The translations under genes and the position numbers were made by a program. The notes beneath the pieces were generated by a model, which saw nothing but the letters and a program-made list of their open reading frames with translations, searched no databases and was not told where the DNA came from. This document shows, piece by piece, positions 7,147-42,906 of a DNA stretch of 64,000 bases; position 1 is the stretch's first letter, and each line of letters starts with the position of its first letter. This DNA is from Minisyncoccota bacterium (GTDB taxonomy: Bacteria > Patescibacteriota > Minisyncoccia > Phycocordibacterales > UBA9973), in the NCBI GenBank assembly GCA_041663005.1, contig JBAZRK010000002.1, positions 128,740-192,739 of the forward strand, read 5' to 3'.

Positions 7147-7158
7147 TAGCTATGAGAG

Positions 7159-7350: not shown

Positions 7351-7417
7351 GTTTATTAACACAGTTAATAAGTCGGGAAGAGTGCCGTTTGATTTATAAA
7401 TAGTATAATACTGACCT

Positions 7418-8761: not shown

Positions 8762-8998
8762 CTGTGGGTAAGTTAAGAAAAACATACTAACAACTTTCAT
8801 TTCAATTGTTAATAAAAAATGATAATTAAATTAAGATAATATTAAAAGATAAATATTACTAAAAATTAAAGAAGGTTGTTAGTTAAAAATAAGATTAAAA
8901 TTTTACAAAATAACCATATAAAGTAATATTGAAAAATTTTATCCACTTATAAACACAACTAGTATTACTAATAATTTAAATATATAAAATATAAACAT
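8762..8998. other. extremely AT-rich dnaA-dnaN spacer, candidate DNA unwinding element of oriC
   Basis: About 237 bp, almost entirely A/T. DnaA-box-like 9-mers occur at 8763-8771 (TGTGGGTAA, 1 mismatch, reverse orientation) and 8939-8947 (TTATCCACT, 1 mismatch). Confidence 0.5.
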
Positions 8999-10096
8999 AT
9001 GAAAATTGAATGCTCTGTTGAAAAAATTAAAAATGCAATTTACCAAACCGAAAGGGTTACAGGTAAAAATCTAACCCTGCCAGTTTTAAGTTCTATCCTT
9101 TTAATCGCTTCGGGGAAATCTTTAAAATTACGAGCCACAAATTTAAGTATTGGTATTGAAATAGAAATCCCAGCAAAAATTGAAAAAGAAGGAATTTTAG
9201 CAGTTTCTGGGTCGGTTTTAAATGCGGTCTTCTCTAACTTACCTACTAATGATAATGTTTTCCTGGAGGAAAAGAATGGTAATTTGTCGGTTAAAACAAA
9301 AAAGAGCCAAATAATACTCAAAGGGCAATCCCATGAAGATTTCCCAACTATACCATCTGTATCTGGATCAAATTTTGAAATAGATTCCAAAAAATTTACA
9401 GAAGGAATAAAATCTGTGTATTATAGCTCCTCGGTTTCAGATATAAAGCCAGAAATATCCAGTGTGTTTATGTATACCAATGATGATGGCTTGGTGTTTG
9501 TTTCCACTGATTCGTTCCGCTTAGCAGAGAAAAAAATAAAAGCGAAGGGGATTGAAGAAATACCTGGAATTATAATCCCATTTAAAAATGTAGTTGAAAT
9601 TTTACGAGTATTCGGGGATGCAAGTGGTGTTATTAAGGTGTGTTTTAATAAAAACCAAATATCATTTTCTTCCGATAATATATACCTAACCTCTCGGATT
9701 ATTGATGGAATTTTCCCCGATTATCGACAAATATTACCTAAAGATACTTCTACGGAGATAGTGGTTTTGAAGCAAGACTTGCTTAACGCCCTAAAATTAT
9801 CAAATGTATTTTCTGATAAATTTAATCAAGTAAACTTTTCCGCCGACCCGAAACAGAAAATTCTTGAACTATCCTCTACTAATAATGATGTGGGTGAGAA
9901 CAAAACCCGATTAGACGCAGTGTTGAAAGGGGAAGGGGTGGAACTAGGCTTCAATTATAAATACTTCTTAGATTGCTTCCAATCTATTACAACCGATAGT
10001 GTTTCAATAAAAATGTCCGGCGGCAGCAAGCCAATGGTTATAACCCCGGTTTCTGACACATCCTTCACATACCTCATAATGCCAATGAATAGGTAG
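8999..10096 (+). CDS. dnaN: DNA polymerase III beta sliding clamp
   Basis: 365 aa with three-domain clamp architecture. Sits in the conserved position after dnaA. Confidence 0.9.
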   Translation: MKIECSVEKIKNAIYQTERVTGKNLTLPVLSSILLIASGKSLKLRATNLSIGIEIEIPAKIEKEGILAVSGSVLNAVFSNLPTNDNVFLEEKNGNLSVKTKKSQIILKGQSHEDFPTIPSVSGSNFEIDSKKFTEGIKSVYYSSSVSDIKPEISSVFMYTNDDGLVFVSTDSFRLAEKKIKAKGIEEIPGIIIPFKNVVEILRVFGDASGVIKVCFNKNQISFSSDNIYLTSRIIDGIFPDYRQILPKDTSTEIVVLKQDLLNALKLSNVFSDKFNQVNFSADPKQKILELSSTNNDVGENKTRLDAVLKGEGVELGFNYKYFLDCFQSITTDSVSIKMSGGSKPMVITPVSDTSFTYLIMPMNR

Positions 10097-20549: not shown

Positions 20550-22994
20550 ATGGCGAAAACAAACAACAATAAAAGGCTGGTACTGCTTGATGCGCACGCA
20601 ATAATCCACCGCGCCTACCACGCCCTGCCCGAATTCACTTCAAGTAGTGGTGAGCCCACTGGAGCCCTCTACGGCCTTTCCAGTATGCTTATTCGTATTA
20701 TTGCCGACCTTAAGCCTGACTATATTGCCGCTTGTTATGACCTACCGCAGAAAACATTTCGCCACGAGGTTTATGATGCCTATAAAGCTGGCCGGGCAAA
20801 GACCGACGAAGCGCTCATTTCTCAACTCAAAGTATCGCGACAAATTTTCGATGCTTTTAACATTCCTATTTATGATGCGCCGGGCTTTGAGGCTGACGAC
20901 GTTTTGGGTACGATAGTTGAGCAATATAAAAAAGATAAAAAATTAGACATCATCATTGCTTCCGGAGATATGGATACAATGCAGTTAGTGGATGACAAGA
21001 AAGTACAAGTTTACACCCTAAAGAAAGGGATTAACGACACGATTCTTTATGATGAAGAAAAAGTTGTAGAACGCTTCGGTTTCAAGCCGGTGCTCTTGCC
21101 GGATTACAAAGGACTCCGAGGGGACCCGTCGGACAATATAATTGGAGTGAAAGGCATAGGAGAGAAAACGGCGCAAACCCTCATCTTGAATTTCGGAACT
21201 GTTGAAGAAATTTATAAAAAAATAAAAAAGGACCCAGAAGCTTTGGCCAAGGCAGGTATAAGCGCCCGGATGATTGAGATACTCAAAGAAAACGAGGAAG
21301 AGGCGCTGTTTTCGAAGACGCTTGCAACCATTCGTACTGATGCACCAATCAAATTTTCCTTACCGGAGAAAACTTTTTGGGAAAGTGCCGACCAGAAGAA
21401 AATAGAAGAAACCTTCACACGGCTAGAATTCAAAAGTCTAGGGGCTCGATTACAGAATTTTTTTAAGAACGGGAATGAGGGCCCCCGGCCAGCAGAATTT
21501 TCTCGGGTCCTTGGGTCGCCCGCGCAAGTTTCTAAAAACGAGCGGGCTCAACCAGACCAGCTCGAAAATTCTCTGGCCGGGAGCCCAGAGATAGATTCCG
21601 AAAAGCTCCAGGAAACGAGCATTGCGCTGTGGCTCATAAATTCCGAAATTTCCGACCCGAAAATAGAAAACATTTTACAATATGCTAAAACCGAAAGCTT
21701 CGAAGAGGCGCGAAGTATAATTTTAAAGAAGCTCAAAGCAGACAAACTGGAAAATGTTTTCGAAGAAATTGAAAAACCGATTATGCCAGTGGTAAAGCAG
21801 ATGGAAGACTATGGGATATTAATCGATAAGAAATATTTTAAAAGTTTATCTGTCGAATACCATAAGGAGCTCGATTTACTTACGAAAAGAATATGGAAAA
21901 CAGCCGGGACAGAATTCAATATTAATTCCCCGAAACAGTTAGGCGAAGTACTTTTCGGCAAGATGGGCATTAAGTCTGGGAAAAAAAGTGCGGGCGGGGC
22001 GCTCTCTACTCGAGTTTCTGTCCTAGAAGAGCTCGAAGAAGAAAACCCGATAATTTCCGACATCCTAGCTTATCGCGAACTTCAGAAGCTCCTTTCTACG
22101 TACATCGACGTTATACCTGATATGGCGGGGGAGGATGGGCGGCTGCACGCCAGGTTCATTCAGAACGGGACGACGACGGGACGCTTTTCTTCCCAAGATC
22201 CAAATTTACAAAATTTACCCATAAAGTCAGAGCTAGGTAGGAGGATTCGCGGCGGCTTCGTAGCCCCGTCTGGGAGCGTCTTGGCAGCATTTGACTACAG
22301 CCAGATTGAACTTCGGGTTGCCGCTATGCTCTCGGGCGACAAGAAAATGACAGCGTTGTTCCGCGAACGTAAGGACATTCACGCCGGAGTGGCGTCTTTT
22401 GTATTCGGGGTGCCTATTGAAAAGGTTGATGCGGAAATGAGACGCAAAGCGAAAGTTATAAACTTCGGCATTATTTACGGGATGGGAGTAAGTGCCTTGC
22501 GGAAAAACTTGGGAGGCACCCGCGACGAAGCGCAGAAATTCTACGACAACTATTTTAATCAGTTTTCTGGGGTGAGGGATTACTTGGAGGAAGTAAAAAG
22601 TTTTGCCAAGAAAAATTCTTATACCGAAACATTGTTCGGCCGCCGAAGATATTTCCCAAACATAAATTCACGCCTGCCATTTCTCCGAAGTATGGCAGAG
22701 CGTACCGCTACCAATGCGTCAATTCAGGGGACAGCTGCGGACATTATTAAGCTTGCCATCAGGTTTACAGAAGAAGACCTCAAAGCGGCAGAGCTTTTAA
22801 AAAAGGTACACCTTGTGCTTCAAGTGCACGATGAGCTGGTTTATGAAATAGAAAAGGATGTGGTAGAAAAAGCTGCCGAAATAATAAAAAAGGCAATGGA
22901 GAGCGCTCTCGTGCGAGCTTACTTGGGCTACAAAACTGACATTCCGCTCTTGGTCCACGAAGGGGCAGGGGCGAACTTAGGGGAAGTCAAATAG
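20550..22994 (+). CDS. polA: DNA polymerase I (5'-3' exonuclease + polymerase domains; no obvious 3'-5' proofreading motifs)
   Basis: 814 aa. N-terminal FEN-like nuclease. Pol motif A DYSQIELR, motif B RRKAKVINFGIIYG, motif C QVHDELV. The inter-domain linker (about 21470-21600) is GC-rich with hairpins. Confidence 0.9.
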   Translation: MAKTNNNKRLVLLDAHAIIHRAYHALPEFTSSSGEPTGALYGLSSMLIRIIADLKPDYIAACYDLPQKTFRHEVYDAYKAGRAKTDEALISQLKVSRQIFDAFNIPIYDAPGFEADDVLGTIVEQYKKDKKLDIIIASGDMDTMQLVDDKKVQVYTLKKGINDTILYDEEKVVERFGFKPVLLPDYKGLRGDPSDNIIGVKGIGEKTAQTLILNFGTVEEIYKKIKKDPEALAKAGISARMIEILKENEEEALFSKTLATIRTDAPIKFSLPEKTFWESADQKKIEETFTRLEFKSLGARLQNFFKNGNEGPRPAEFSRVLGSPAQVSKNERAQPDQLENSLAGSPEIDSEKLQETSIALWLINSEISDPKIENILQYAKTESFEEARSIILKKLKADKLENVFEEIEKPIMPVVKQMEDYGILIDKKYFKSLSVEYHKELDLLTKRIWKTAGTEFNINSPKQLGEVLFGKMGIKSGKKSAGGALSTRVSVLEELEEENPIISDILAYRELQKLLSTYIDVIPDMAGEDGRLHARFIQNGTTTGRFSSQDPNLQNLPIKSELGRRIRGGFVAPSGSVLAAFDYSQIELRVAAMLSGDKKMTALFRERKDIHAGVASFVFGVPIEKVDAEMRRKAKVINFGIIYGMGVSALRKNLGGTRDEAQKFYDNYFNQFSGVRDYLEEVKSFAKKNSYTETLFGRRRYFPNINSRLPFLRSMAERTATNASIQGTAADIIKLAIRFTEEDLKAAELLKKVHLVLQVHDELVYEIEKDVVEKAAEIIKKAMESALVRAYLGYKTDIPLLVHEGAGANLGEVK

Positions 22995-24270: not shown

Positions 24271-24936
24271 CTATTGCTTCTTCAGCCACTCAATCATTTT
24301 CTTGTATGTAGCTGGGCCTGTTTCTCCGTCAGCAGTGGTGCCGACATCTTTCTGGAAATCAGTAACGGCGGTTTTAAGCCCGGCACCGTAGTCGTTGTCG
24401 ACTTTATTTGAAGTTTTGTTATAAAGATTTAAAAATTTCTGTATTGTACCCACCCGAGTGCCCTTCGAACCAACTTTCATAAATACATTATCAGTAACGA
24501 GCTTCTGCAGTTCGTTTATAAGAGTTTGGTTTTTGTAAGTTATTGTAGTTGGGGCAGGCTTTTCTTCTTCTGGTGCAGGCGCAGGCTCTTCCTTCACTTC
24601 TTCCTTTTCTGCTTCAAGTGTTCCGAGCTGGCTTTTTAAAGCAGCTAATTCTTTTTCAAGCTCGCTATTTTTCTCGGCAAGTTCGCGTTCGTGTTGACGC
24701 GCCGCGTGCAAGTCACCGGGTTCGAGGGTTGTAAATGCCCAGTAGCCCAAGAGGCCTAAGGCGGCAATAACGATAATTGATATCAATCCGAATTTAAAAT
24801 TCTCCACAATGTATATATTGTAGTATAATGATGCTTCTTTGTAAAATAGTGCTAGTATAAAAAAAGATAACACCAGTATGAAACAAGGAATTTTCAAACT
24901 AAAAAGCAAATGGCAGCCTGCCGGGGACCAACCCAA
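24271..24936 (-). CDS. membrane-anchored coiled-coil protein with C-terminal peptidoglycan-binding (PG_binding_1-like) domain
   Basis: TM helix ISIIVIAALGLLGYWAF. Coiled coil AEKNSELEKELAALKSQLGTLEAEKEE. C-terminal ...TADGETGPATYKKM, PG-binding-like. The annotated ATG overlaps the divergent uvrB start; an internal GTG (about 24807) may be the true start. Confidence 0.5.
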   Translation of the reverse strand: MGWSPAGCHLLFSLKIPCFILVLSFFILALFYKEASLYYNIYIVENFKFGLISIIVIAALGLLGYWAFTTLEPGDLHAARQHERELAEKNSELEKELAALKSQLGTLEAEKEEVKEEPAPAPEEEKPAPTTITYKNQTLINELQKLVTDNVFMKVGSKGTRVGTIQKFLNLYNKTSNKVDNDYGAGLKTAVTDFQKDVGTTADGETGPATYKKMIEWLKKQ

Positions 24937-27100
24937 GGCTATTTCTGAGCTTATGTCCGGGCTTAAAAAAGGGTTTCAAAAGCAGACTCTCCTGGGCGCC
25001 ACCGGCACCGGGAAAACTTTCACGATGGCGAACGTCATTGCAGAGTGGGGGAAGCCGGCGCTGGTCATTGCCCACAATAAAACTCTGGCTGCTCAGCTGG
25101 CGCAAGAATTTAAAATGTTTTTCCCTGAAGCGGCCGTTCATTACTTCGTTTCCTATTATGATTACTATCAGCCGGAGGCATATATGCCGGTCTCAGATAC
25201 CTATATCGAAAAAGACGCGCAAATAAACAAAGAGATTGACCGCTTGCGCCACGCTACTACCCAGGCACTCTTAACGAGGAGGGATGTCGTTATTGTCGCT
25301 TCCGTGTCTTGTATCTATGGTCTTGGTAGTCCGGAAGAGTACGAGAAAGTAAATTTAAAATTGGAAATTGGGCAGGCAATGGACCGCACGACCCTGATGA
25401 AACGCTTGATCGAAATACATTTCGAGCGCACCAATGCTGACCTTACCCCTGGCACATTCCGAGTTATGGGTTCGCGAGTGGAATTTATGCCTGTTTCCGA
25501 GACGATTATGTATCAACTGGAACTTGCGGGAGGCGAAATTTCAAAAATCACCAAAGTAGACCCCGTTTCCTCAAGGGTTATCAAAGAAGAAACAAATGTT
25601 TTTATTTTCCCCGCAAAACATTTCATCACAGATGAAGCGCGACTTAAGACAGCTCTGGTTAACATTAAAAAAGAGTTAGCCGCGCAACTCAAGAAGTTCG
25701 AAAAGGAAGGTAAGCTTCTCGAGGCAGAAAGAATAAAACGAAGAACCAATTACGACCTAGCAATGATTAAAGAAGTTGGCTACTGCAACGGGATAGAAAA
25801 CTATTCCCGACATCTGTCAGGAAAAAAAGAAGGCGAGCCGCCGGAAACACTTTTGAGTTACTTTCCAAAAACCACCTCACCTCGCCCCTCGAAAAACTCG
25901 GGGCACCCCTCTCCTTGGCAAGGAGAGGGGTTGGGGGGAGGGGTCCATGTTCCGGACTTCCTTACTATTATCGACGAGTCCCACGTCACCCTCCCACAAC
26001 TCGGCGGAATGTATGCAGGTGATGCTTCTAGGAAAAATACACTTGTTGAATACGGATTTCGTTTACCATCGGCAAAAGATAATCGCCCCCTTAAGTACGC
26101 GGAATTCGAAGAACGCATCGGACCCGTAATATACACCAGCGCCACTCCAAGCGAAGTCGAGAGGAAAACCAGCGAACAGATCGTGGAGCAAATAATTCGC
26201 CCGACGGGTCTAGTAGACCCGGAAGTGCTTGTTAGGCCAGTGTCCGAAAAGGAGAAGTATCTTGGGCAAATTCAAGATTTCATAACCGAAGCGGAAAAGA
26301 CTATTGCCAAAGGTTTCCGGGCGATGGCGACCACGCTTACGAAGAAGATGGCAGAAGACCTGACTGCATATTTAAAAGAAAAAGGTTTTAAGGCTGAGTA
26401 TTTACATTCTGATATAAAAACCATGGACAGAATCAAAATATTAACTCAATTCAGACGAGGAGGAAGGGGAACTCCTGCCCCGTCTGGAGTCGAAGACTCT
26501 CGTTCGGGGTTTGATGTTTTGGTGGGGGTAAACTTGTTGCGAGAAGGTTTGGACCTTCCTGAGGTGGCGCTTATTGGAATTCTCGACGCTGACAAGGAGG
26601 GCTTTCTCCGTTCAGAAACATCGCTCATTCAAATCATTGGCCGTGCGGCGCGTAACTCCGAGGGCAGGGTAATTTTATATGCGGACAGCATTACCGGCTC
26701 TATGGAGAGGGCGATAGGGGAGACCGAGCGCCGCAGAAACATTCAACTCGCATATAACAAGGAGCACGGCATAACGCCGCAAACTATTCTTAAGAAAATT
26801 CACGATATCACCGAAGAGCTAGAAAGTGAGCATGGCAAAATTGTAAATGCAGAGCTTGCCCTGGATGTGGAATTGTTTAAAAAAGTTTTTGCCAAAGAGA
26901 AAAGCAATAAAGGCAGAACCGAGTCCGATACCATTAAAAACATCGGCCTTTCTGACGAAGAACGAAACAAGGTGGTCTATGACAAGATAATTAAAATGAA
27001 AGAAAAAGAAATGAACAAAGCGGTGAAACAGCTCGACTTCGAAACCGCCGCTATATTGCGCGACGAAATTAAAGTTTTGCAAGAAAAATATTTGAGATAA
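24878..27100 (+). CDS. uvrB: excinuclease ABC subunit B
   Basis: 740 aa. Walker A GATGTGKTF. Helicase motifs. VIDESHVTLPQLGGMY. C-terminal UVR domain (FETAAILRDEIKVLQ). Two in-frame GC-rich extra segments relative to canonical UvrB. Confidence 0.95.
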   Translation: MKQGIFKLKSKWQPAGDQPKAISELMSGLKKGFQKQTLLGATGTGKTFTMANVIAEWGKPALVIAHNKTLAAQLAQEFKMFFPEAAVHYFVSYYDYYQPEAYMPVSDTYIEKDAQINKEIDRLRHATTQALLTRRDVVIVASVSCIYGLGSPEEYEKVNLKLEIGQAMDRTTLMKRLIEIHFERTNADLTPGTFRVMGSRVEFMPVSETIMYQLELAGGEISKITKVDPVSSRVIKEETNVFIFPAKHFITDEARLKTALVNIKKELAAQLKKFEKEGKLLEAERIKRRTNYDLAMIKEVGYCNGIENYSRHLSGKKEGEPPETLLSYFPKTTSPRPSKNSGHPSPWQGEGLGGGVHVPDFLTIIDESHVTLPQLGGMYAGDASRKNTLVEYGFRLPSAKDNRPLKYAEFEERIGPVIYTSATPSEVERKTSEQIVEQIIRPTGLVDPEVLVRPVSEKEKYLGQIQDFITEAEKTIAKGFRAMATTLTKKMAEDLTAYLKEKGFKAEYLHSDIKTMDRIKILTQFRRGGRGTPAPSGVEDSRSGFDVLVGVNLLREGLDLPEVALIGILDADKEGFLRSETSLIQIIGRAARNSEGRVILYADSITGSMERAIGETERRRNIQLAYNKEHGITPQTILKKIHDITEELESEHGKIVNAELALDVELFKKVFAKEKSNKGRTESDTIKNIGLSDEERNKVVYDKIIKMKEKEMNKAVKQLDFETAAILRDEIKVLQEKYLR
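25871..25954 (+). repeat. in-frame GC-rich palindromic insertion inside uvrB (encodes TTSPRPSKNSGHPSPWQGEGLGGGVHVP)
   Basis: 84 nt containing the perfect hairpin CCCCTCTCC-TTGGCAA-GGAGAGGGG and a second stem GCCCC...GGGGC. It interrupts the conserved LLxYxPK | DxLxxxDESHV junction of UvrB. Confidence 0.6.
26452..26510 (+). repeat. second in-frame GC-rich palindromic insertion inside uvrB (encodes GGRGTPAPSGVEDSRS)
   Basis: Hairpins CAGACG-AGGAG...CTCCT...-CGTCTG and GAGTC-GAA-GACTC, located between the conserved R/L and GFDVLVG motifs. Confidence 0.5.
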
Positions 27101-27104
27101 AAAA

Positions 27105-27126
27105 AGCCGGGCGTTTCCGTCCGGCT
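27105..27126. terminator. terminator hairpin downstream of uvrB (A-run before, works better for the minus strand)
   Basis: AAAAAAAGCCGGGCGTTTCCGTCCGGCT. Confidence 0.5.
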
Positions 27127-27153
27127 GGGGTCAGGCGCATATCCCCAAAGCGC

Positions 27154-27255
27154 GTAATTCTAACTTCCGACGATGGCGATGTGCCTGACCGACCAATTCT
27201 CCCACAACAATTCCTGAATCTTTTCGCGTTCCAGAATACTTAAATGCTTGTATTG
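27154..27255 (-). pseudogene. 33-aa remnant resembling the N-terminal HTH of IS30-family transposases
   Basis: Hand translation MQYKHLSILEREKIQELLWENWSVRHIAIVGS. Compare IS30 HTH ...LTLSEREEIRAGLSAKMSIRAIA. Terminated after 33 codons. Lies between uvrB and the island. Confidence 0.3.
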
Positions 27256-27449
27256 CATACCTCTATTTTACTAAAAGTGTTGCACTTACTTGTTGAACCT
27301 AGGGGCATGTGTCCGACTGGGGGCACTGGAATGATCGTTACTCAGGGATTTTATAATTGTTATGTTATTTTAGATAAAGGTCTATTGGTTTTGGGAGTTT
27401 TGCTACTAATTGTAGGGCTTATATTTTACACGTTTCAAAAAGCACGCAC

Positions 27450-28757
27450 CTAATTACGTAATATATTACGTAACTTTTCCAATAATTTTATGCTTGAAGT
27501 TAATGCACCTTCGGTTGAGGGATTTTCAAGGTAGTCGCCGCAGAAATACACATGGTTTTTGGAATCATCGGGCCGGTTAAGAAATTTTGTTACTGATTTT
27601 GTAAACCCTGGATAAATAATAGGAGTCGCAGATTCCCACGTTCTCATTTCCAGAATATCTAAATCCTCTATATCTGGGAATTCTTCTTTTAGTAAATACA
27701 AAATATTATCAGAATTAAAATTACCTGTTTTGATCAAAGATTTGTAAGTATTTGCACGCAAAGAAGCAATGAACGTTACTCTACCCGAGGCGTCCTTTTT
27801 TGATCCCACCTTACCCAATGCCGTAAAGTTTGATTTCTCGGCGGGCAGGAATTCTATGACCTTAAATCTAGGAAATAAATCGGTTTTACCCTCACACAAT
27901 ATTTGAACCGTGCTGGCATATCTTATACTTGAGAAAAATGTTTTTTCCTCCGGCGATGGGGTTTTTAGGATGTCGAGAACATAAACTCCAGGTATCGCAA
28001 TTATTGCATTTTTTGCCTCATGCATTTTTATTTGCTTGTTGTTTATTGCAGTGATAAAAACACCATCGCGTGTTTGTTTTACCGACGTTACTTTTGTGTT
28101 TAATTCGACTGGAACTTCCGCTGCCATTTTTTGACACAATTGGCCTACCCCTTCTCTAAAAGTGAAAGTCTTAATCTTTACCAATTTTAACAACACAGAG
28201 TAAAAGGCGAGTCGAGAGAAATCTTTTGTTGGATAAAAAAGAACATTTTGATTAAAAAGCTCTACGACATGGTCATACCCTTCATGCCCAGCAAAATCTC
28301 GAAAATCATCGCGGATGCTTTTGTCGTCCAACTGTAAAGCGTCTTCAAGTTTGTAAAAATCTATTTTTCTATACTGAATCAAACGTACCAGCGTGGCAAA
28401 ACAAAGTTGCAGCTTGGCTTTAAAGGATATACCGTTGTAGAGAAATGCGCCCGCAAATCTTTTTTGACCATCAAAAGGGTAAAGTTTGCCGTTTTTAACT
28501 ATAGCTGCTTGCTTTAGATTTATAGGCACGAGTTCCACCCCTAATTCCTTTGCAAGGGGTAACATATACTTATATAAATTTGCTATGAATTTAGCCCCGA
28601 AATCTACCGGCTGGCCGTTTACAAAATTAGTAGACATCCTACCGCCAAAATAGGATTCCTGTTCTAAAACCAGCACCTTTTTACCTCGCTGTTTAAGCCT
28701 GTAAGCTGTGTGGAGACCGGCTATGCCAGAACCTATGATAATATAATCAAATTGCAT
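27450..28757 (-). CDS. FAD-dependent oxidoreductase of the amine oxidase / phytoene desaturase (CrtI) / protoporphyrinogen oxidase superfamily
   Basis: 435 aa. N-terminal dinucleotide fold IIIGSGIAGLHTAYRL...VLVLE...GGR. C-terminal FCGDY...EGALTSS FAD motif. Confidence 0.6.
   Translation of the reverse strand: MQFDYIIIGSGIAGLHTAYRLKQRGKKVLVLEQESYFGGRMSTNFVNGQPVDFGAKFIANLYKYMLPLAKELGVELVPINLKQAAIVKNGKLYPFDGQKRFAGAFLYNGISFKAKLQLCFATLVRLIQYRKIDFYKLEDALQLDDKSIRDDFRDFAGHEGYDHVVELFNQNVLFYPTKDFSRLAFYSVLLKLVKIKTFTFREGVGQLCQKMAAEVPVELNTKVTSVKQTRDGVFITAINNKQIKMHEAKNAIIAIPGVYVLDILKTPSPEEKTFFSSIRYASTVQILCEGKTDLFPRFKVIEFLPAEKSNFTALGKVGSKKDASGRVTFIASLRANTYKSLIKTGNFNSDNILYLLKEEFPDIEDLDILEMRTWESATPIIYPGFTKSVTKFLNRPDDSKNHVYFCGDYLENPSTEGALTSSIKLLEKLRNILRN
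27454..27473. repeat. perfect palindrome TTACGTAATATATTACGTAA (left copy of an island-flanking 18-bp repeat)
   Basis: Shares the identical 18-nt core TACGTAATATATTACGTA with the palindrome at 31605-31626. Overlaps the stop codon of the CrtI-like gene. Confidence 0.7.
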
Positions 28758-28850
28758 TTTACTCTATTATTTTTCTCTCGACCCTTTTAATGCCGGGCAG
28801 AAAAAGGAATCGGATAATTTTTTGCAGAATTTTTTCCATGACAATATCTA

Positions 28851-29645
28851 TTATGGCAATTTGTGCTCGATACTAAATTCGTATAAAACAACTACACAGG
28901 GGGCACTCAAGATCACTATGAATAAAAATTCTTCCAAAGGAAATGGATAAGGAACGTAACCCATAAACCCTAAATATTTTCCTGGAAAGTCCCAGTGGTG
29001 CAAGAAGTTGCCTGTCATTTCAAACAATAAAAGCAAAAATGCCATGAAGGATGCAGGAATAAGCATACTTTTAGACAGGTATTTGTATTTCCACAAAGCA
29101 ACACCTAGAAACATTATAGCAAACAGACACATGTAGAAATAAGGGTATGCTAAATTTAGGCTAATAACCATTAACAATAAAAGTATGGCCAGAGATAAAA
29201 TTGGTAAGATAAAAAATCTTAACCTTAAACGCACGGGCGATTTGGGTAAAGCTAGCGTGTGATAAAGCATCACTGTTACATAACAATAAAGAAGAACCCA
29301 TATTATATCGTCTACAGGCAGAGATCCGCTCAGTAGTCGGAAAGGGAATATCGTGTTTGGTATATACCAAACTTTGTATATAAAGGCATAATAATCTACA
29401 GGCAAAAGAATTGGCACCATCGCAAATGCAGAAAACAAAAGAGAGGAGGATATGTTTTCAGGGCGACGGAATGATAGTATGAATGCCAAAGGAACAAAAA
29501 ATAAAAGGGTTGATATGAGGTAATTAGCACTCAAAAAAATCGAAACAGTTGCGGCTCCAATAGGGAATAGCAGGAAAACAAAATTCATACTTTCTATATG
29601 ATACAATAACGTAGTGACTAAGCAAAGCTTGGATCTTAAAGACAA
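28851..29645 (-). CDS. lycopene cyclase domain-containing membrane protein (CrtYcd-like)
   Basis: Polytopic membrane protein. The hPLEE motif (YPFPLEEFLF) is typical of lycopene-cyclase-domain proteins. True start is probably the internal ATG at 29588 (MNFVFLLFPIG). Confidence 0.5.
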   Translation of the reverse strand: MSLRSKLCLVTTLLYHIESMNFVFLLFPIGAATVSIFLSANYLISTLLFFVPLAFILSFRRPENISSSLLFSAFAMVPILLPVDYYAFIYKVWYIPNTIFPFRLLSGSLPVDDIIWVLLYCYVTVMLYHTLALPKSPVRLRLRFFILPILSLAILLLLMVISLNLAYPYFYMCLFAIMFLGVALWKYKYLSKSMLIPASFMAFLLLLFEMTGNFLHHWDFPGKYLGFMGYVPYPFPLEEFLFIVILSAPCVVVLYEFSIEHKLP

Positions 29646-29646
29646 A

Positions 29647-30312
29647 ATGATTTATGCCCACAAGGGCTATTTTGACAGGGAGTCGGTAAAACATTACCGC
29701 GAAAATTCAGTAGAGGTTTGTAAAATTGCCAGTACGAAAGATTATATAAAAGCCATAGAAGTTGACGTGCGAAAATCCAGCGACGGCATTTTATATTGCT
29801 ACCATGGTAATTTTTGGCAGTATATTTTCTTACTAAAAATTCCACAAACCTTCACTACGCTCCAGAAAAAATACCATGTCGCAACTCTCAAAGATATTTT
29901 AAGCGTTATTTCTTCAGACAAAATTATCGCGCTCGATATCAAAGATACCAAAATAACTAAGGCAGATATTTTGAATGCTTTTGCGGGCAAAAAATTCAAG
30001 GAAGTAGTCATAATTAATAAATCTACTGCTTATCTGGAGCGTTTTGATAATATGTCCAAAGAGTTTGTAAAAATGTTGAACGTGAATGTGTTTCCCGCTT
30101 TTTGCAATCTGGAAAAACTGAAAGGCGATAACTTTAAGTATTTCGAAATCCTTTTTCCTTTCCTGGCAACCAAAAAGATTTTACAAAAAATAAAAGATAG
30201 CGGCCTGGAATGGACAGGTTTTCCTGCAATTATTTTCACGAGCGAGGAAAGTTATCGAGAATGCGTAGAGAAATATAAAATTCCCTACCTACCCGCCCAC
30301 TTATTTTATTGA
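29647..30312 (+). CDS. glycerophosphodiester phosphodiesterase-family (GDPD/PI-PLC-like) protein
   Basis: AHKG...ENS...IEVDVRKSSDGILYCYHG parallels the GDPD H-R-G / E-N-T / IE-D-V...DG...HD signature. Start set at the internal ATG at 29647 (MIYAHKG) rather than the longer ORF from 29614. Confidence 0.45.
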   Translation: MIYAHKGYFDRESVKHYRENSVEVCKIASTKDYIKAIEVDVRKSSDGILYCYHGNFWQYIFLLKIPQTFTTLQKKYHVATLKDILSVISSDKIIALDIKDTKITKADILNAFAGKKFKEVVIINKSTAYLERFDNMSKEFVKMLNVNVFPAFCNLEKLKGDNFKYFEILFPFLATKKILQKIKDSGLEWTGFPAIIFTSEESYRECVEKYKIPYLPAHLFY

Positions 30313-30315
30313 CCG

Positions 30316-31134
30316 ATGAAGTTAAAAATTTTTACAGCGAACATAGCATTTGGGCTCAAGGGAATGGACAATCTTTTAGTAAATACTATTGGGCATTTGG
30401 TATTTCACGGCTGGTCCATGATAGCTTTATTTTTAAATCCTACCTCTTTTAAAAATCGCAAAAAAACGCTGAACCCCCGAAGAATCTCGTACATAAAAAA
30501 GCACAGTAGCCTTGCGTCGATACTGGAAGTAATAAAAAAAGAAAAACCGGACATTTTGATGTTAAATGAGTTAATAAAGCAAATCCAATGTAGTGAAATC
30601 GAAAAAGAGCTGTCTGCTTTAGGGTATTCTTCAATTTATTTCGGTTATTCGGCACACCATGATGACGCCACGGTTTCTTCTCTCGTTGCATCTAAAATAA
30701 AAGGAGAAAAATTGGCGATAGAATTTACCGAAGGGGCTCATGCGGGTGGCGGGGGAGGTATTGTCGGGCTAAGGCTTGTGCAGTCAAACATAACCGTGGT
30801 AGGAGTACATATGTGTACGCCTAAATTTCCATGGTTATATGACGCGCAAATTGCAGATATAGTAAAATTTTTAGAGACCGAAAAATTACTTGGGCGGGAA
30901 GTTATAATTGCAGGGGATTGGAATGCGTCAACACTTTTTCTTAAAAAATACCCCGCATTTTCAAAACTGAATCTTATAAATAGCGAAGGGGATATGCTTA
31001 CTTGTCCTACGTTTTTACCAAAGCTCGAGCCCCTAGACCATATCTTTGTCCCGCAGAATTTTAAAACTATAAATTCCAAAACGATCGCTTTCGGTTCGGA
31101 CCATTTGGCTGTAAGTGTTGAAGTGGGAAAATAA
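30316..31134 (+). CDS. endonuclease/exonuclease/phosphatase (EEP) family protein
   Basis: IIAGDWNAS and GSDHLAVSVEV motifs typical of EEP/sphingomyelinase-like phosphoesterases. Confidence 0.6.
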   Translation: MKLKIFTANIAFGLKGMDNLLVNTIGHLVFHGWSMIALFLNPTSFKNRKKTLNPRRISYIKKHSSLASILEVIKKEKPDILMLNELIKQIQCSEIEKELSALGYSSIYFGYSAHHDDATVSSLVASKIKGEKLAIEFTEGAHAGGGGGIVGLRLVQSNITVVGVHMCTPKFPWLYDAQIADIVKFLETEKLLGREVIIAGDWNASTLFLKKYPAFSKLNLINSEGDMLTCPTFLPKLEPLDHIFVPQNFKTINSKTIAFGSDHLAVSVEVGK

Positions 31135-31613
31135 TATAATGGAAGACTTACCAATAAAAATAAACAACGACAAATATCAAGTTTTTCTTTTTACTAGCAG
31201 ATGTCCACTGCCCATCCCCTTCGCTTCCCACCTGTGGTTTGTCATAAATAAAAAAGGAGCGCTATATAGATATGAAGTTACTAATCATAAAAATCCGAAA
31301 GGCGTAAAACATTGGGGGCACATAGCTTTAAATTTCCTACCCTTTTTTTTCTGGAATGAGTGTAATTCCTTACTATAAAAAAATTTGTTTCAAGGCGAAA
31401 CTTTTAAGTCAAATCGAAGGCGACGAAAAAAGCATAGCCAGGTTAATGGCGGATTTTATAGAAAATTCTCCGAATACGTATGCCCACCGCGATGTTTATC
31501 ATTTTGTTGGACCCAACAGCAATACTTACGCAGCTTGGGTTCTGCGCAATTTTCCGGAGTTTAAAGCCGCATTGCCCAGGAATGCTTTCGGAAAAAATTA
31601 CAAATGTACGTAA
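31115..31613 (+). CDS. two overlapping small ORFs (87 and 85 aa) of unknown function, possibly one gene split by a frameshift
   Basis: ORFs 31115-31378 and 31356-31613 overlap by 23 nt in different frames. No motif recognized. Confidence 0.25.
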
Positions 31614-31626
31614 TATATTACGTACA
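31605..31626. repeat. perfect 22-nt palindrome TGTACGTAATATATTACGTACA (right copy of the island-flanking repeat)
   Basis: Identical 18-nt core to the 27454-27473 palindrome. Overlaps the stop of the preceding ORF and lies about 45 nt upstream of uvrA. Confidence 0.7.
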
Positions 31627-31713
31627 TTGAAAGAGGACTCAAATGTGATAGAATAGCCCTATACACCCCCTATGGATGAGGCGGGGTGGATTTGTGTTAT
31701 ACGGCACAATTTT

Positions 31714-34380
31714 ATGAAAACCGATAAAAATATAGACCCTCCTTCGCGTAAAGCTACGGACGGGCAAAGCAAAATAATAGTTAAGGGTGCTAGGACGCAC
31801 AACTTAAAGAATATAAGCGTAGAAATGCCTCGCAATAAAATGGTGGTAATTACCGGTGTTTCGGGGTCTGGAAAGTCATCTCTTGCCTTCGACACTATCT
31901 TCGCCGAAGGGCAGAGGAGGTATGTGGAATCCCTCTCTTCTTATGCGCGGCAATTTTTGAACCAAATGCCCAAGCCGGATGTGGACGAAATTTCCGGCCT
32001 GTCGCCCGCGATCTCCATCGACCAAAAATCACGCTCCAACAATCCGCGTTCTACGGTGGCAACCATCACGGAGATTTATGACTACCTCCGCGTCATGTAC
32101 GCCCGCATCGGGCACCCACATTGTCCGCAATGTGGAGAAGAGATTAAAAAACTTTCCAACGAAGAAATTTTAAATTTTGTTATTGGGAAAGTTTTTTCGA
32201 GGTCGGACCTCAAGAATTCCCGAGGTCCGACCTCTAGGCGGAAGGTGATGGGCGTGGAGTGGGACGAGACCGAGATAAGTATTTTCTCTCCGGTGGTGAG
32301 GGGCAGAAAGGGGGAGTACTACCAGCTCCTGTACGATTTACTTGGAAAAGGTTTCGCCGAAATACGCCTCGACGGAGCTGCGAAGAAGCTCCGTGAACAG
32401 ATTACGCTTTCTAAAAACAAGGCCCACAACATCGACATCCTGATAGACCGTTTCGCTGTTCACGAATTTACCGACGACAAAGACGCGAGCCGAATGCGCT
32501 TGGCAGAAGCCATTGAGCGCGCCTTGATAGAGTCAGATAGTTTGGTAACTATTAAAATTGGCGAGGAGGAATTTATTATGTCAGCGAAGTTTGCCTGTAA
32601 GAACGATGGATTTTCTTTCCCCGAAGTTGAGCCCAGGCTTTTCTCCTTCAATTCTCCATACGGAGCCTGCCCGGTATGTAACGGCTTAGGGTCCAAATAT
32701 TTTATGGGTGACGAACCTTGTGACGCTTGTCATGGCGCGCGATTGCGGCCCGAAGCGCTGAATGTTTTCTTGAGGTCGGACCTCAAGAATTCCCGAGGCC
32801 CGACCTCGAAGAGCGGACTAAACATACTTGATATTTCATCACTTTCTATTAAGGACGCCCACGACTTCTTCAAGAATTTGAAACTCTCGGAGCAAGAGAA
32901 AGAAATTTCTGTACCAGTAGTGCGCGAGATAGAAGCGCGGTTACAGTTTATGCTCGATGTGGGCCTCGACTACCTCCAGCTTTCAAGAAAAGCCAATACT
33001 CTCTCGGGCGGAGAAGCACAACGAATAAGGCTTGCTTCCCAGCTGGGCTCACGTCTTGTCGGAGCGTTGTATGTGCTAGATGAACCCACGATTGGTCTCC
33101 ACCAGCGCGACAATGACCGACTGATAAAAACTTTGCAAAATTTGCGCGATCTAGGGAATACCATACTTATAGTGGAACACGACGAGGACACTATTTACGC
33201 CTCGGACTACATTGTCGACATAGGGCCAAAGGCCGGAGTTCACGGGGGCGAAGTAATTGTGTCCGGATATTTAGAAGACTTACTTACCGCAAAGAAGAAT
33301 CCTAATAATTCTCGTACCCTCGCCTACCTCCGCGAGGAAACTCGGATTGAAATTCCTAAAAAGCGCCGCGAGGCTAAAGGGGTACTGCGAATTGCCGGAG
33401 GGAAAATATTTAATATAAAAAATATGAACGTGGAGGTGCCGCTCGGTGTTATGACCTCGATTACCGGCGTGTCTGGGTCTGGTAAAAGTTCTCTTATGTA
33501 CGAGATTCTCTATAAGAACTTGCAGGCGAGGTACGAAAGGAAATATCGCACAGCGAAAATATTTAATGCCACATCTTTTTCGGGTACAGAATACCTCTCC
33601 CGCGCGATATTAATTGATCAGTCGCCCATAGGCAGAACTCCGCGTTCAAACATTGCCACTTATACGGGCTCCTTTACCCACATCCGTGACCTTTTCGCAC
33701 TAACAGAAGAGGCGCGCTTGCGGGGCTGGAAGGCTAACAGATTTTCTTTCAACGTGAAGGGCGGACGCTGCGAAGCTTGTGAAGGCAACGGTGAAATAGC
33801 CGTGGAAATGCATTTCTTGCCGACAGTGTATGTTACCTGTGATGTGTGTAATGGTAAACGTTTCGACAAAGAAACCCTCACCGTAAAATACAAAAAGAAA
33901 AATATTCACGAAGTACTGCGAATGACCGTGGAAGAGGGATTGAAATTTTTCAAAGATATTCCCGCGATTTCCGACAGGTTGCAAACTCTTATGGATGTAG
34001 GGCTTGGATATTTGGAATTGGGACAATCAGCTACAACTCTTTCGGGAGGGGAAGCGCAACGAGTAAAAATTTCGAGCGAACTGTACCGTCCACACTTAGA
34101 GAAAACAATTTATCTTTTGGATGAGCCTACCGTGGGGCTGCATTACGATGACGTCCACAAGCTGCTCGAGGTATTAAGCAAGCTCGTGTCCAAAGGTAAC
34201 ACCGTGGTCCTAATTGAGCACAACCTTGATATTATAAAAAGCTCGGACTACATTATAGACATAGGTCCTGAGGGGGGAGTAAACGGCGGGAACATAGTTG
34301 CTAAAGGTACTCCGGAAGAAGTGGCCAATAATACTAAAAGTTATACCGGTAAATATTTAAAAAAGGTTCTACGAAAATAA
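31714..34380 (+). CDS. uvrA: excinuclease ABC subunit A
   Basis: Two ABC ATPase modules (GVSGSGKSSLA; GVSGSGKSSLMY; LSGGE signatures). Zn-finger Cys clusters. Start set at MKTDKN (31714) rather than the upstream extended ORF. Confidence 0.95.
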   Translation: MKTDKNIDPPSRKATDGQSKIIVKGARTHNLKNISVEMPRNKMVVITGVSGSGKSSLAFDTIFAEGQRRYVESLSSYARQFLNQMPKPDVDEISGLSPAISIDQKSRSNNPRSTVATITEIYDYLRVMYARIGHPHCPQCGEEIKKLSNEEILNFVIGKVFSRSDLKNSRGPTSRRKVMGVEWDETEISIFSPVVRGRKGEYYQLLYDLLGKGFAEIRLDGAAKKLREQITLSKNKAHNIDILIDRFAVHEFTDDKDASRMRLAEAIERALIESDSLVTIKIGEEEFIMSAKFACKNDGFSFPEVEPRLFSFNSPYGACPVCNGLGSKYFMGDEPCDACHGARLRPEALNVFLRSDLKNSRGPTSKSGLNILDISSLSIKDAHDFFKNLKLSEQEKEISVPVVREIEARLQFMLDVGLDYLQLSRKANTLSGGEAQRIRLASQLGSRLVGALYVLDEPTIGLHQRDNDRLIKTLQNLRDLGNTILIVEHDEDTIYASDYIVDIGPKAGVHGGEVIVSGYLEDLLTAKKNPNNSRTLAYLREETRIEIPKKRREAKGVLRIAGGKIFNIKNMNVEVPLGVMTSITGVSGSGKSSLMYEILYKNLQARYERKYRTAKIFNATSFSGTEYLSRAILIDQSPIGRTPRSNIATYTGSFTHIRDLFALTEEARLRGWKANRFSFNVKGGRCEACEGNGEIAVEMHFLPTVYVTCDVCNGKRFDKETLTVKYKKKNIHEVLRMTVEEGLKFFKDIPAISDRLQTLMDVGLGYLELGQSATTLSGGEAQRVKISSELYRPHLEKTIYLLDEPTVGLHYDDVHKLLEVLSKLVSKGNTVVLIEHNLDIIKSSDYIIDIGPEGGVNGGNIVAKGTPEEVANNTKSYTGKYLKKVLRK
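32198..32234 (+). repeat. 36-nt palindromic element (GAGGTCGGACCTC-AAGAATTCCC-GAGGTCCGACCTC) inserted in frame in uvrA, copy 1
   Basis: Inverted 13-nt arms around an EcoRI-containing spacer. Translated as (S)RSDLKNSRGPTS. Confidence 0.7.
32773..32808 (+). repeat. 36-nt palindromic element, copy 2 (1 mismatch), inserted in frame in uvrA
   Basis: GAGGTCGGACCTCAAGAATTCCCGAGGCCCGACCTC. Same reading frame and same peptide (LRSDLKNSRGPTS) as copy 1, about 575 nt downstream. Confidence 0.7.
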
Positions 34381-34404: not shown

Positions 34405-35640
34405 ATGGAACTCAAAAATCTAAAAAAATTAAACCCCGAAGGAAAGCAGAATAAAAATATAGCTTCCTACGGGGCAGGACTTCCCAATAGTCCTGGCGTT
34501 TACTTTTTCATGAGAGGTCGGAAGATTTTATATATCGGCAAGGCGACATCCTTACGGGATAGAGTGAGGAGTTACTGGAGCAAGGATTTAATCGAGACGC
34601 GCGGGCCCATTGTGGCAGATATGGTTTTTCAAGCAGACAAGGTGGAGTGGCAGGCTACTGACACCGTTCTCGAAGCGCTTATACTCGAAGCCAATTTAAT
34701 TAAAAAGCACCAACCCCAAGCCAACACTAAGGAGAAGGATAATAAGAGTTTTAATTATGTTTGTATAACCCGAGAGAAATTACCAAGGGTTTTAGTAGTA
34801 AGAGGAAGAGTTTTGGAAAATTACAAAGGAAGTATCTTCGGCCCATACACTAACGGCAGGCAGCTAGGTGAGGCGCTAAAAATTGTGCGTCGAATATTCC
34901 CATTTATCGATGACAGCTCGAGCAAGAAACAGAATTATCAATTTTACAAGCAAATCGGACTTACCCCTGACACCAAGGCACCCAGCGAACTTTATTTAAG
35001 CAACATAAAATACCTTAAACTGTTTTTCGCCGGAAAAAAGAAATCAGTAATGCGAGAAATTAAAAAAGAGATGATGCAGAGGGCTAAAAATCGCGAATTC
35101 GAACAAGCTACCGAATTGAAAAGACAGCTTTTTGCCATACAGCACATTAATGATGTTGCACTTATAAAAGAAGAAAACCTAAACCCCTCGATTTTTAGAA
35201 TTGAGGCGTACGACATAGCGCATATGTCGGGGAAAAGTATGGTGGGTGTGATGACGGTGGTGGACGGACACGAACCGGACAAAAGCCAATATAGGAAATT
35301 TAGAATCCGCACCCAAGAAGGTGCAAACGACACCGGCGCGCTTAAGGAGGTACTCACAAGGCGCCTTGCTCACGAAGAATGGCCTTACCCGAATCTTATT
35401 GTAATGGATGGTTTCACCGCCCAAATAAATTCTGCTAAAAAAGCGCTAGGAGAAGCAGGAATGAACATACCCGTCGTCTCAGTTATTAAAGACGAACGTC
35501 ACCGCCCGAGAGGATTCGGTGGCGACAAAGAACTCGCACACAAATATGAGCGGGAAATACTTCTTGCCAACAGCGAAGCACACCGCTTCGCCATTACTTA
35601 CCATAAAAATTTACGCGGGAAAAAGTTTTTAGGTAAATAA
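34405..35640 (+). CDS. uvrC: excinuclease ABC subunit C (short form lacking the C-terminal HhH region)
   Basis: GIY-YIG domain (GVYFF...ILYIGKA...R..Y). UVR domain (REFEQATELKRQL). RNase H-like endonuclease region starting RIEAYDIAHMSG. Only 411 aa. Confidence 0.8.
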   Translation: MELKNLKKLNPEGKQNKNIASYGAGLPNSPGVYFFMRGRKILYIGKATSLRDRVRSYWSKDLIETRGPIVADMVFQADKVEWQATDTVLEALILEANLIKKHQPQANTKEKDNKSFNYVCITREKLPRVLVVRGRVLENYKGSIFGPYTNGRQLGEALKIVRRIFPFIDDSSSKKQNYQFYKQIGLTPDTKAPSELYLSNIKYLKLFFAGKKKSVMREIKKEMMQRAKNREFEQATELKRQLFAIQHINDVALIKEENLNPSIFRIEAYDIAHMSGKSMVGVMTVVDGHEPDKSQYRKFRIRTQEGANDTGALKEVLTRRLAHEEWPYPNLIVMDGFTAQINSAKKALGEAGMNIPVVSVIKDERHRPRGFGGDKELAHKYEREILLANSEAHRFAITYHKNLRGKKFLGK

Positions 35641-42827: not shown

Positions 42828-42840
42828 AAATTAAATATAC

Positions 42841-42880
42841 CCCCACACCTATTTTTTCCCTAATGGGAATAGGTGTGGGG
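42841..42880 (-). terminator. long near-perfect hairpin downstream of the giant surface-protein gene
   Basis: CCCCACACCTATTTTTTCCC-TAA-TGGGAATAGGTGTGGGG, an 18-bp stem. Confidence 0.6.
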
Positions 42881-42906
42881 GTATACCACAGTTCTGTGTG
42901 TTTTTT

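Follow-up and report, generated by a model that had tools for sequence, protein, structure and literature searches.

Repetitive extragenic palindromes (REPs) and their paired form, the REPINs, are associated with REP-associated tyrosine transposases (RAYTs), and a gene bracketed by such palindromes is the arrangement that defines both RAYT genes and REP/REPINs (PMC5581495, PMC3337134). REPIN/RAYT systems have so far been viewed as strictly extragenic and lineage-bound, and most known examples come from Proteobacteria, with a few from elsewhere. Palindromes inserted in frame into genes are familiar from Rickettsia, where the Rickettsia palindromic elements (RPEs) were reportedly described by Ogata et al. 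in 2000. Here we analyse a 64,000-nt stretch of a Minisyncoccota genome (contig JBAZRK010000002.1, positions 128,740 to 192,739; hereafter the window), whose uvrA gene carries two copies of a 36-nt palindromic repeat that we call the P-element. An earlier note on this DNA had likened the repeat to RPEs; in-frame palindromic elements do stand in repair genes here and act in principle as RPEs do, but their closest known kind is REP/REPIN elements with a RAYT. We propose, with a probability of roughly 70%, that the uvrA 36-mers are REPIN-like element copies in a REP/REPIN-RAYT system, tolerated in frame at permissive loops of the protein.

The two uvrA copies (Table 1) are in frame, differ at one position and add the same peptide, exactly as the earlier note had described apart from a 1-nt shift in its coordinates. 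Each consists of two 13-nt arms (GAGGTCSGACCTC) around a 10-nt loop, GAGGTCGGACCTC-AAGAATTCCC-GAGGTCCGACCTC, and the single difference, T>C at 32799 in copy 2, places an A.C mispair in the stem. None of 100 shuffles yielded a match to the 36-mer. Both copies are read in the same phase, the codon-aligned peptide RSDLKNSRGPTS being encoded at 32200-32235 and 32773-32808 (amino acids 177-188 and 368-379). As DNA, the 36-mer is predicted to fold into a hairpin with a 13-bp stem (-14.6 kcal/mol, z -5.2); as RNA with flanks, the two copies gave z-scores of -3.6 and -4.1. The similarity between them continues for 12 nt on the 5' side, producing a 48-nt block of 92% identity. Because the shared upstream GAAWGTTTTYYY encodes the conserved LNVFL at the second site, part of the flank may have been co-copied; together with a shared downstream GCGGA, it suggests that either the flank was copied along or microhomology was used. 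The two copies also have the loop AAGAATTCCC in common: among the matches listed (see below), other recovered copies of this loop class read AAGGGRTCCC, and the nearest look-alikes are a 12-nt AAAGAATTCCCA (L067) and an 11-nt TAAGAATTCTT (L089). No further P copy was detected, at up to 3 mismatches per arm, in the window or in 10 kb more of the same contig upstream of it, leaving a count of two in this 74-kb sample of the source genome. The window has a G+C content of ~43%, and its UvrA and UvrB proteins are identical to entries labelled Candidatus Paceibacterota, with Nomurabacteria-like Patescibacteria as closest relatives.

Comparison with orthologues supported the earlier note's view that the uvrA and uvrB segments are lineage-specific, as they are absent or variable in 120 orthologues of each protein and fall into gaps against solved sequences. 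The 120 UvrA orthologues, 84-91% identical, revealed two hypervariable sites. Site 1 (after EEILNFVLEK) ranges from ~10 to 45 residues and holds the P peptide in the window genome alone. Site 2 (after EALNVFL) has the minimal form EDKNKK; the P peptide is intact there in P0006, P0033 and P0064 and decayed in P0080, P0010, P0060 and P0095, and the P-element occupies the same site in loci L061 and L121. On a distance tree of UvrA, the P-bearing sequences are scattered, each beside relatives without P, and many combinations of site 1 and site 2 states occur. Against the solved UvrA 9gxk, gaps of 22 residues (site 1) and 13 residues (site 2) enclose the P segments. An AlphaFold model of UvrA, computed with 34 close orthologues, had a mean pLDDT of 42 and was unusable, so that surface-loop placement is deduced solely from the gaps against solved sequences. 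Judged by these alignments, the uvrA 36-mers are insertions that are patchily present among close orthologues; no variant without the insert was found among the 90% cluster members of P-bearing UvrA proteins.

As a separate observation, the window UvrA is devoid of the ~115-residue insertion domain of canonical UvrA, its residues 342-343 aligning to residues 305 and 421 of 9gxk, while the UvrB-binding domain is retained. This feature is apparently common to a whole clade of orthologues of 860-915 aa.

One genome per species was scanned for the pattern GAGGTCSGACCTC-N4-20-GAGGNCSGACCTC, which returned at least 120 stretches against a chance expectation of ~0.04 (our own estimate); all copy numbers given here are lower bounds. 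Further copies of the 36-mer, for which the earlier note had proposed a search, were not detected in the 74 kb of the source genome; the element belongs to a dispersed repeat family present in many other genomes and genes. The matches listed come nearly all from Patescibacteria (Saccharibacteria, Paceibacterota, Nealson-, Lipton-, Taylor-, Giovannoni-, Zambryski-, Yanofsky- and Chisholmbacteria), joined by two Omnitrophota metagenome-assembled genomes (MAGs) and a few MAGs with other labels, and they derive from MAGs and single-cell genomes of many studies. Individual genomes can be rich in P: the Saccharibacteria genome CAZVEC01 has at least 22 copies, spread over 17 or more contigs, and JACPGX01 has at least 10. 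Viral contigs, plasmids and phages yielded no copies.

The unit of dispersal is an inverted doublet. The 834 kb of matches listed contain 139 doublets against 27 single arms, and Omnitrophota loci that are otherwise unrelated share just ~41 nt, which marks the doublet as a discrete unit. In 122 of the 139 doublets, the central bases of the two arms are complementary (p = 9e-21). Compensatory double changes were seen at 9 of the 13 stem pairs, and 93% of cells in the comparison of 38 distinct arm pairs are paired, a level reached by none of 500 shuffles. The arm itself is a 6-1-6 palindrome that is free of stop codons in all six frames. Loops of 4-21 nt are genome-specific, and the dominant doublet lengths (30, 36, 39 and 42 nt) are all divisible by three, for copies inside and outside open reading frames (ORFs) alike. 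In some Saccharibacteria copies the same arms enclose 46-70 nt of cargo, and intergenic copies in this group have inverted, copy-specific flanks (X/X') and lie between an A-run and a T-run. Some P loops have likewise become palindromic. These inverted flanks and palindromic loops suggest insertion into existing hairpins, or extension of the palindrome by template switching. Direct repeats were not found in the flanks of the 139 copies, which show occasional inverted flanks instead.

The P family is apparently undescribed, and it is widespread. Rfam searches, at gathering thresholds on the window and at E <= 1 on 8 loci, retrieved tRNAs, one group II intron and chance microRNA-like hairpins, with no P family among them. 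A padded, 40-column profile of the peptide RSDLKGSRGPTS gave 26 candidates in a set of 5.8 billion proteins, none at E <= 10, and the literature searched contained neither the 13-mer nor any text joining RPE, RAYT or REPIN with Patescibacteria. TIGR-type arrays are built of tandem repeats with variable spacers beside an effector gene (PMC12045711). Arrays of this or the CRISPR type, considered on account of the 36-nt size and the Patescibacteria hosts, were ruled out, as the doublets stand isolated and form no arrays. One of the Omnitrophota contigs with P-elements also holds a group II intron domain V/VI (L014 53-138; RF00029, 49.9 bits), and a ~230-nt repeat that includes a P-element is common to L014, L019 and L070.

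In two loci, P palindromes bracket a gene for a RAYT-type transposase. An ORF encoding 192 aa (L110, 699-1277) matched the Y1_Tnp domain (PF01797, E = 1e-15) and the equivalog model NF047646, REP_Tyr_transpos ('REP-associated tyrosine transposase'), with 82.6 bits at a cut-off of 80; its best PDB match was 4ER8, the TnpA-REP of E. coli, to which the HUH and Tyr motifs (MPNHFHLL, YIHLNP) align. This gene is flanked at 653 and 1304 by P-centred palindromes, AAAAGGTTCGGCATTTT-P-AAAATGCCGAACCTTTT. A homologue in L013 lies between two 34-nt P doublets that differ at one base (downstream copy GAGGTCGGACCTCCAGATCTGGAGGTCCGACCTC), one of them 4 nt 5' of the ATG and the other within the last codons. 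The RAYT genes encode ~170-190 aa, and the L013 unit measures ~630 nt including both flanking hairpins. A tblastn search of the P-bearing loci added seven homologues, to which CAZVEC01, rich in P, contributes at least five; MHMD01 has two RAYT-like ORFs, and the paralogues are 32-51% identical to each other. Five of the seven have a different perfect palindrome on both sides, some of these palindromes occurring elsewhere as well; in a sixth (L021b), the 3' end is marked by a P-like arm. Every RAYT paralogue with both flanks readable has a palindrome on both sides. Scores with the IS200 model of NCBIfam are far lower than those with its REP-transposase model.

Two further arrangements were seen around these genes. 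In L110 (1-1320), three P-centred long palindromes spaced by 652 nt separate a sigma-70-like gene and the RAYT gene, giving the impression that one and the same hairpin encloses each of these small genes. A Saccharibacteria RAYT-like gene (L104, 1943-2985) is flanked by ATGTTTGGACCTCSGAGGTCCAAACAT, which contains the two P half-sites in swapped order, and one copy of this sequence lies in frame inside the coding sequence itself (2206).

By analogy with TnpA-REP and the IS200/IS605 enzymes, a RAYT-type Y1 (HUH) transposase would recognize the hairpin in single-stranded DNA, cut or rejoin it, and move or copy the element. The work behind this analogy is reportedly that of Messing in 2012 and of Ton-Hoang in 2010 and 2012 (cited in PMC5581495). 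In gene-dense genomes, elements would land inside genes, and selection would remove the copies that break them. Survival would then be limited to in-frame, stop-free copies in permissive loops, which would lead to accumulation at a few hypervariable sites such as those of UvrA, UvrB, UvrC and LigA. In the window genome, the site 2 copy would be the older one: since the two copies share a loop seen in no other recovered copy of its class and site 1 holds P in this genome alone, the site 1 copy was probably made recently from site 2, 573 nt away. The data show the repeat family, its covarying doublet hairpins, their in-frame position in real genes, a patchy presence with fast gain, loss and replacement at a few loops, and RAYT genes between the same palindromes; the enzyme, the single-stranded intermediate and the direction of copying are what we infer here.

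Several observations weigh against a REPIN-RAYT origin. The 74 kb available from the source genome contained no RAYT homologue, P itself flanks just two RAYT genes, perhaps three, and a single one of the nine RAYT-like ORFs reaches the NCBIfam cut-off, the REP-transposase family still being the best match for the others. The P core is central in a longer palindrome in L110 and may therefore be a secondary insertion into another REP. The GTAG/CGTC tag of classical REPs is absent in or next to the arm, and to our knowledge no organism has provided an in vivo demonstration of REPIN transposition driven by a RAYT. Filled and empty sites in uvrA, uvrB and uvrC define neither exact boundaries nor target duplications, since the flanks of these hot spots have diverged. 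Finally, the microhomologies around the site 1 copy, GAAWGT upstream and GCGRA downstream, fit template switching as well as transposition.

The P-element resembles the REP/REPIN-RAYT systems of E. coli (TnpA-REP, 4ER8) and Pseudomonas fluorescens in being a short (20-40 nt) inverted-doublet hairpin with many dispersed copies, in flanking a Y1/HUH gene with the same palindromes, and in the differing palindromes of its RAYT paralogues (PMC3337134, PMC5581495, PMC3733652). In contrast to classical REPINs, which are almost exclusively extragenic, about two thirds of P doublets lie in open frames, and the P arm is a palindrome by itself; the tag found at one end of classical REPs (PMC3733652) is missing. 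REPIN populations are lineage-specific and vertically inherited, whereas the P arm is common to classes and even phyla. RAYTs are described as single-copy and vertically inherited (PMC5581495); in the loci covered here, CAZVEC01 has at least five RAYT-like ORFs and MHMD01 has two, most of them with a different palindrome. Like RPEs (PMC1779305), P is a palindromic selfish repeat, in frame in conserved genes of reduced genomes, that adds a hydrophilic peptide and leaves the gene intact. RPEs, however, measure 100-150 bp, are confined to Rickettsia and have no known transposase, while P elements of 30-48 nt occur in another phylum, are RAYT-linked and show no sequence similarity to them. With ORF-inserting bacterial MITEs (short for miniature inverted-repeat transposable elements; Coxiella, PMC5896051; reviewed in PMC10969869), P shares non-autonomy, terminal inverted repeats, an intragenic position at times and the addition of a peptide, but MITEs are usually 100-400 bp long, derive from DDE insertion sequences and leave target-site duplications, none of which was seen for P. 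P is linked to a Y1 HUH transposase, as are IS200/IS605 elements, and would share hairpin recognition and a single-stranded DNA mechanism with them; there, different subterminal imperfect hairpins are used and the whole insertion sequence moves, whereas identical perfect palindromes flank the gene here and are also solitary in many places.

Within the matches listed, open frames of 150 aa or more contain 91 of the 139 doublets, corresponding to 86 distinct host ORFs; 61 of these were inspected singly, and 51 of the 61 have Pfam-supported domains. The hosts are common housekeeping enzymes. LigA carries P in five genomes, at three sites with differing frames and loops. Other replication and repair hosts are UvrA, UvrB, UvrC, UvrD, DnaG, DprA, RecJ and HolA. 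Hosts in translation and tRNA modification include TGT, ArgRS, LeuRS, GatA, GatB, MnmA, TsaD, Dus, KsgA and Fmt, and those of the cell envelope Mur ligases, PBP2 and glycosyltransferases; there are further hosts besides. Of the 86 hosts, 17 are genome-maintenance proteins, a significant excess over a baseline of 10% (p = 0.005) but not over one of 15% (p = 0.14), and the copies are not all independent. The enrichment in repair genes that had struck the earlier note is strong for the 36-nt subfamily (uvrA, uvrB, uvrC) and modest, at ~20% of hosts, for the P family as a whole.

A metagenome scan for GGTCGGACCTCAAGNNNTCCCGAGG, representing the 36-nt subfamily, retrieved seven loci, which are considered here together with the species-scan matches. 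In uvrA, the subfamily occupies site 2 (L061, L121). In uvrB, it occupies a third site (L057, L122) and a fourth (L123), with two copies in one uvrB (L122/L123); in uvrC, it was found in the four loci named in Table 1. Elsewhere it occurs in TGT (L099) and in one unidentified ORF (L125). All coding copies of this subfamily read as RSDLK(G/N)SRG(P/T)TS, though five of the six frames are open. In JAGOSH01, all five known P copies lie in or beside uvrB, uvrC, recJ and ligA, and uvrA, uvrB and uvrC are neighbours in the genomes that carry the subfamily. Its single frame and orientation and its restriction to uvrA, uvrB and uvrC could reflect local copying, an orientation bias of single-stranded DNA transposition combined with tolerance of the peptide, or relaxed constraint on repair genes. 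A bolder proposal, which we hold to be doubtful, is that a cross-phylum REPIN-RAYT system of Patescibacteria and of some Omnitrophota from the same habitats has adapted to intragenic life through stop-free arms and dominant lengths of 30, 36, 39 and 42 nt, with one subfamily preferentially gained or retained in uvrA, uvrB and uvrC in one frame and orientation. This would hint at a link, mechanistic or functional, between transposition through single-stranded DNA and the repair of DNA damage, or at a hairpin that serves the repair genes as a common cis-signal.

Two host proteins show additional features. A DprA gene (L027, 782-1954) has the same ~40-residue segment, with a P doublet and an extra arm in it, near both termini (arms at 1046/1063/1138 and 1736/1753/1828). 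The leucyl-tRNA synthetase of a Zambryskibacteria genome (L082, 4080-6806) contains a NUDIX domain (residues 345-464) inserted after the editing domain, and its P-element lies near the anticodon-binding domain.

The uvrB and polA segments of the window belong to palindrome families other than P. All of them, like those of uvrA, keep the reading frame as the earlier note had observed, and its lengths for the uvrB inserts (28 and ~15 aa) agree with solved UvrB; the second could be narrowed to 26462-26506 within its interval of 26452-26510. At site A, the alignment with 9gy7 places all 28 residues as an exact insertion, with YFPK before and DFLTIIDESH after it. Among 120 orthologues this site (SYFPK|DFLTII) varies from 'TG' at the shortest to ~40 residues at the longest; peptides of several families recur there, and one of them, in P0209, is a decayed P copy. 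Hairpins had been claimed for both uvrB inserts. Site A does contain a perfect palindrome with 13-nt arms, ACCCCTCTCCTTG-G-CAAGGAGAGGGGT (25905-25931), of the CCCTCTCCTT/AAGGAGAGGG family, but the site B fold on its own is no better than shuffles (z -1.0). Comparison of the site B hairpin with L130 revealed that its inner stem differs by compensatory changes. Of the 120 orthologues, 14 have site B filled (13 of 119 other sequences), one of them with 10 aa. The alignments confirm that the segments at site A and site B are hairpin insertions specific to the lineage, in hot spots that are hypervariable.

The polA linker, which the earlier note had grouped with these segments, forms a strong in-frame hairpin of 110 nt (-63.4 kcal/mol, z -4.8), the sole segment here within the RPE size range. 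Against a 70%-identical PolA, the linker is poorly alignable and 15 residues longer in the window, and it is best described as a variable linker that possibly arose by insertion.

Neither the uvrB nor the polA segments have a second DNA copy in the window, and a first search of ~0.95 Mb of loci found none of their palindromes. The site A palindrome (CCCTCTCCTT...AAGGAGAGGG) was later recovered in uvrA site 1 of L131 and beside a P-element in L103, and the peptides it encodes reappear in P0061, P0072 and P0218. Further peptide families (NHLALKGTPPQKGG, SPLLRGEKKGG and SPKxDLGA..KKxKS) occur at differing UvrA and UvrB sites across genomes. The occupation of the same permissive loops by several palindrome families fits the presence of several RAYT paralogues, each with its own REP. 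An additional palindrome, TCCCCCTTGGAAAGGGGGA, occurs with conserved flanks three times within 620 nt of a Liptonbacteria contig (L103, 1326-1947), and a relative of it lies in uvrA site 1 of L131 (770-788).

In-frame insertion at permissive loops is an RPE-like trait, and the cargo-bearing Saccharibacteria copies (46-70 nt between the arms) are MITE-like. Selfish palindromes of these kinds could have spread by means other than a RAYT, either through a DDE transposase for which the 13-nt arms would serve as terminal inverted repeats or through recombination after DNA uptake, the RAYT neighbours then being coincidental or insertion targets. The central position of P in the longer palindrome of L110 and the failure to find a RAYT in the 74-kb sample would fit as well. 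We consider this origin unlikely, given that no target-site duplication was seen, that no DDE transposase bounded by P arms is present in ~1 Mb of loci, that the L013 RAYT is bracketed by P doublets only, and that palindromes on both sides of every readable RAYT paralogue are the signature of RAYT/REP systems. For the site 1 copy, and possibly other copies in the uvrB-uvrA-uvrC region, template switching or short-patch ectopic gene conversion, promoted by the hairpin and independent of a transposase, is a serious minority possibility that concerns the origin of these copies and not of the family. A donor 573 nt away, the 9 of 12 nt of upstream host flank and the downstream GCGGA shared with it, and the clustering of subfamily copies within a few kb (two in the uvrB of L122/L123; uvrB, spacer and uvrC in JAGOSH01) all point in this direction, as does the extension of palindromes into X/X' flanks and loops, which recalls quasipalindrome correction. 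The microhomologies are short, however, and could be due to chance, and such a process would not account for dispersal to unrelated loci and contigs, as with the copies on at least 17 contigs of CAZVEC01.

A selected cis signal was also weighed, whether a DNA-uptake sequence, a portable terminator, or an element of a DNA-damage regulon acting as operator or RNA hairpin. The uptake sequences of Neisseria (DUS) and Pasteurellaceae (USS) occur about once per kb and work as single units that need no complementary partner. They resemble P in being short, conserved and tolerated in coding frames, in forming terminator-like inverted pairs and in a bias to genome-maintenance genes, which Davidsen is said to have described for Neisseria and Haemophilus in 2004. 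Conservation of the same 13-mer across classes, the 17 genome-maintenance hosts out of 86 (LigA five times, UvrA/B/C/D, DnaG, DprA, RecJ and HolA) and the A-run/T-run surroundings of intergenic Saccharibacteria copies, reminiscent of bidirectional terminators, would suit a signal of this sort. Yet P reaches tens of copies per genome at most (two in the 74-kb sample), single arms are rare, and the arms form covarying doublets, which a duplex-binding dimer would not need. Presence is patchy among close orthologues, implying that no gene depends on P; uvrB and uvrC of the window genome are without it, and positions 0.5-1.1 kb inside an ORF would be poor for operators. Because of the patchiness, low density and doublet covariation, a regulatory or uptake role is very unlikely. 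That the inserts arose in assembly or sequencing, for instance from a chimeric hairpin or an adapter, can practically be dismissed: hairpins are able to cause local misassembly, but nothing specific speaks for it here, the identical UvrA protein occurs in several deposited sequences (NCBI, JGI, ENA), an ENA and a Logan data set gave identical assemblies of the region's first 18 kb, and the family is found in MAGs and single-cell genomes of many studies with host frames always kept.

If the proposed REPIN-RAYT origin is correct, the association of REPINs with RAYTs would extend to a very large and poorly known part of the bacterial tree, and to elements that are read through as peptides of 10-14 residues, mostly inside essential and repair genes of Patescibacteria. 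It would also provide a mechanistic candidate for RPE-like 'selfish DNA in proteins' and account for length variation in conserved Patescibacteria proteins, including the hypervariable loops of UvrA, UvrB, UvrC and LigA. In alignments and structure predictions, P inserts should be taken neither for functional domains nor for errors. A RAYT of ~170-190 aa and its 34-36-nt hairpin substrate make a compact pair for biochemistry.

Table 1. Positions of the P-elements, the other palindromic segments and their host genes in the window
Feature	Position (nt)	Strand	Remarks
polA inter-domain linker, long imperfect palindrome	21479..21587	+	in frame; outer arms GGGCCCCCGGCCAG / CTGGCCGGGAGCCC, 13/14 complementary; inner stem GCCCGC/GCGGGC
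uvrB (host gene)	24878..27100	+	
uvrB site A insertion, 28 aa (TTSPRPSKNSGHPSPWQGEGLGGGVHVP)	25871..25954	+	two hairpins
uvrB site B insertion of 15 aa (GRGTPAPSGVEDSRS), flanked by FRRG and FDVLVG	26462..26506	+	hairpin 26478-26509
uvrA (host gene), ORF	31672..34380	+	database start 31714, 888 aa
Upstream flank of copy 1, GAAAGTTTTTTC	32187..32198	+	9/12 identical to copy 2 flank GAATGTTTTCTT at 32760-32771
P-element copy 1 (REPIN-like doublet), arms GAGGTCGGACCTC / GAGGTCCGACCTC, loop AAGAATTCCC	32199..32234	+	in frame, uvrA site 1, peptide RSDLKNSRGPTS
P-element copy 2 (1 mismatch vs copy 1)	32772..32807	+	in frame, uvrA site 2, peptide RSDLKNSRGPTS
uvrC	34405..35640	+	no element in window; orthologous site holds P-element in L093, L124, L126, L127

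Other features of the window concern regulation and gene neighbourhood. An AT-rich palindrome, TACGTAATATATTACGTA, occurs twice, at 27454-27473 and 31606-31625 (0 and 2 mismatches; chance expectation 0.01). The second copy lies just upstream of a -10-like box, TGTGATAGAAT, before uvrA, making the palindrome a candidate operator of a repair regulon. A perfect inverted repeat with 18-nt arms, TATACCCCCACACCTATT / AATAGGTGTGGGGGTATA, and a 14-nt loop is located between two minus-strand ORFs (42836-42885); it is terminator-like and unrelated to P. Near the window start are origin-region genes (span 133-10096), namely R3H/jag, yidC, yidD, dnaA (7418-8761) and dnaN (8999-10096). Ahead of them lies a cluster resembling type IV secretion genes (TraC-like, TraG P-loop ATPase, T4SS pilin), with uvrD and ksgA further upstream (L128, 1-10000).

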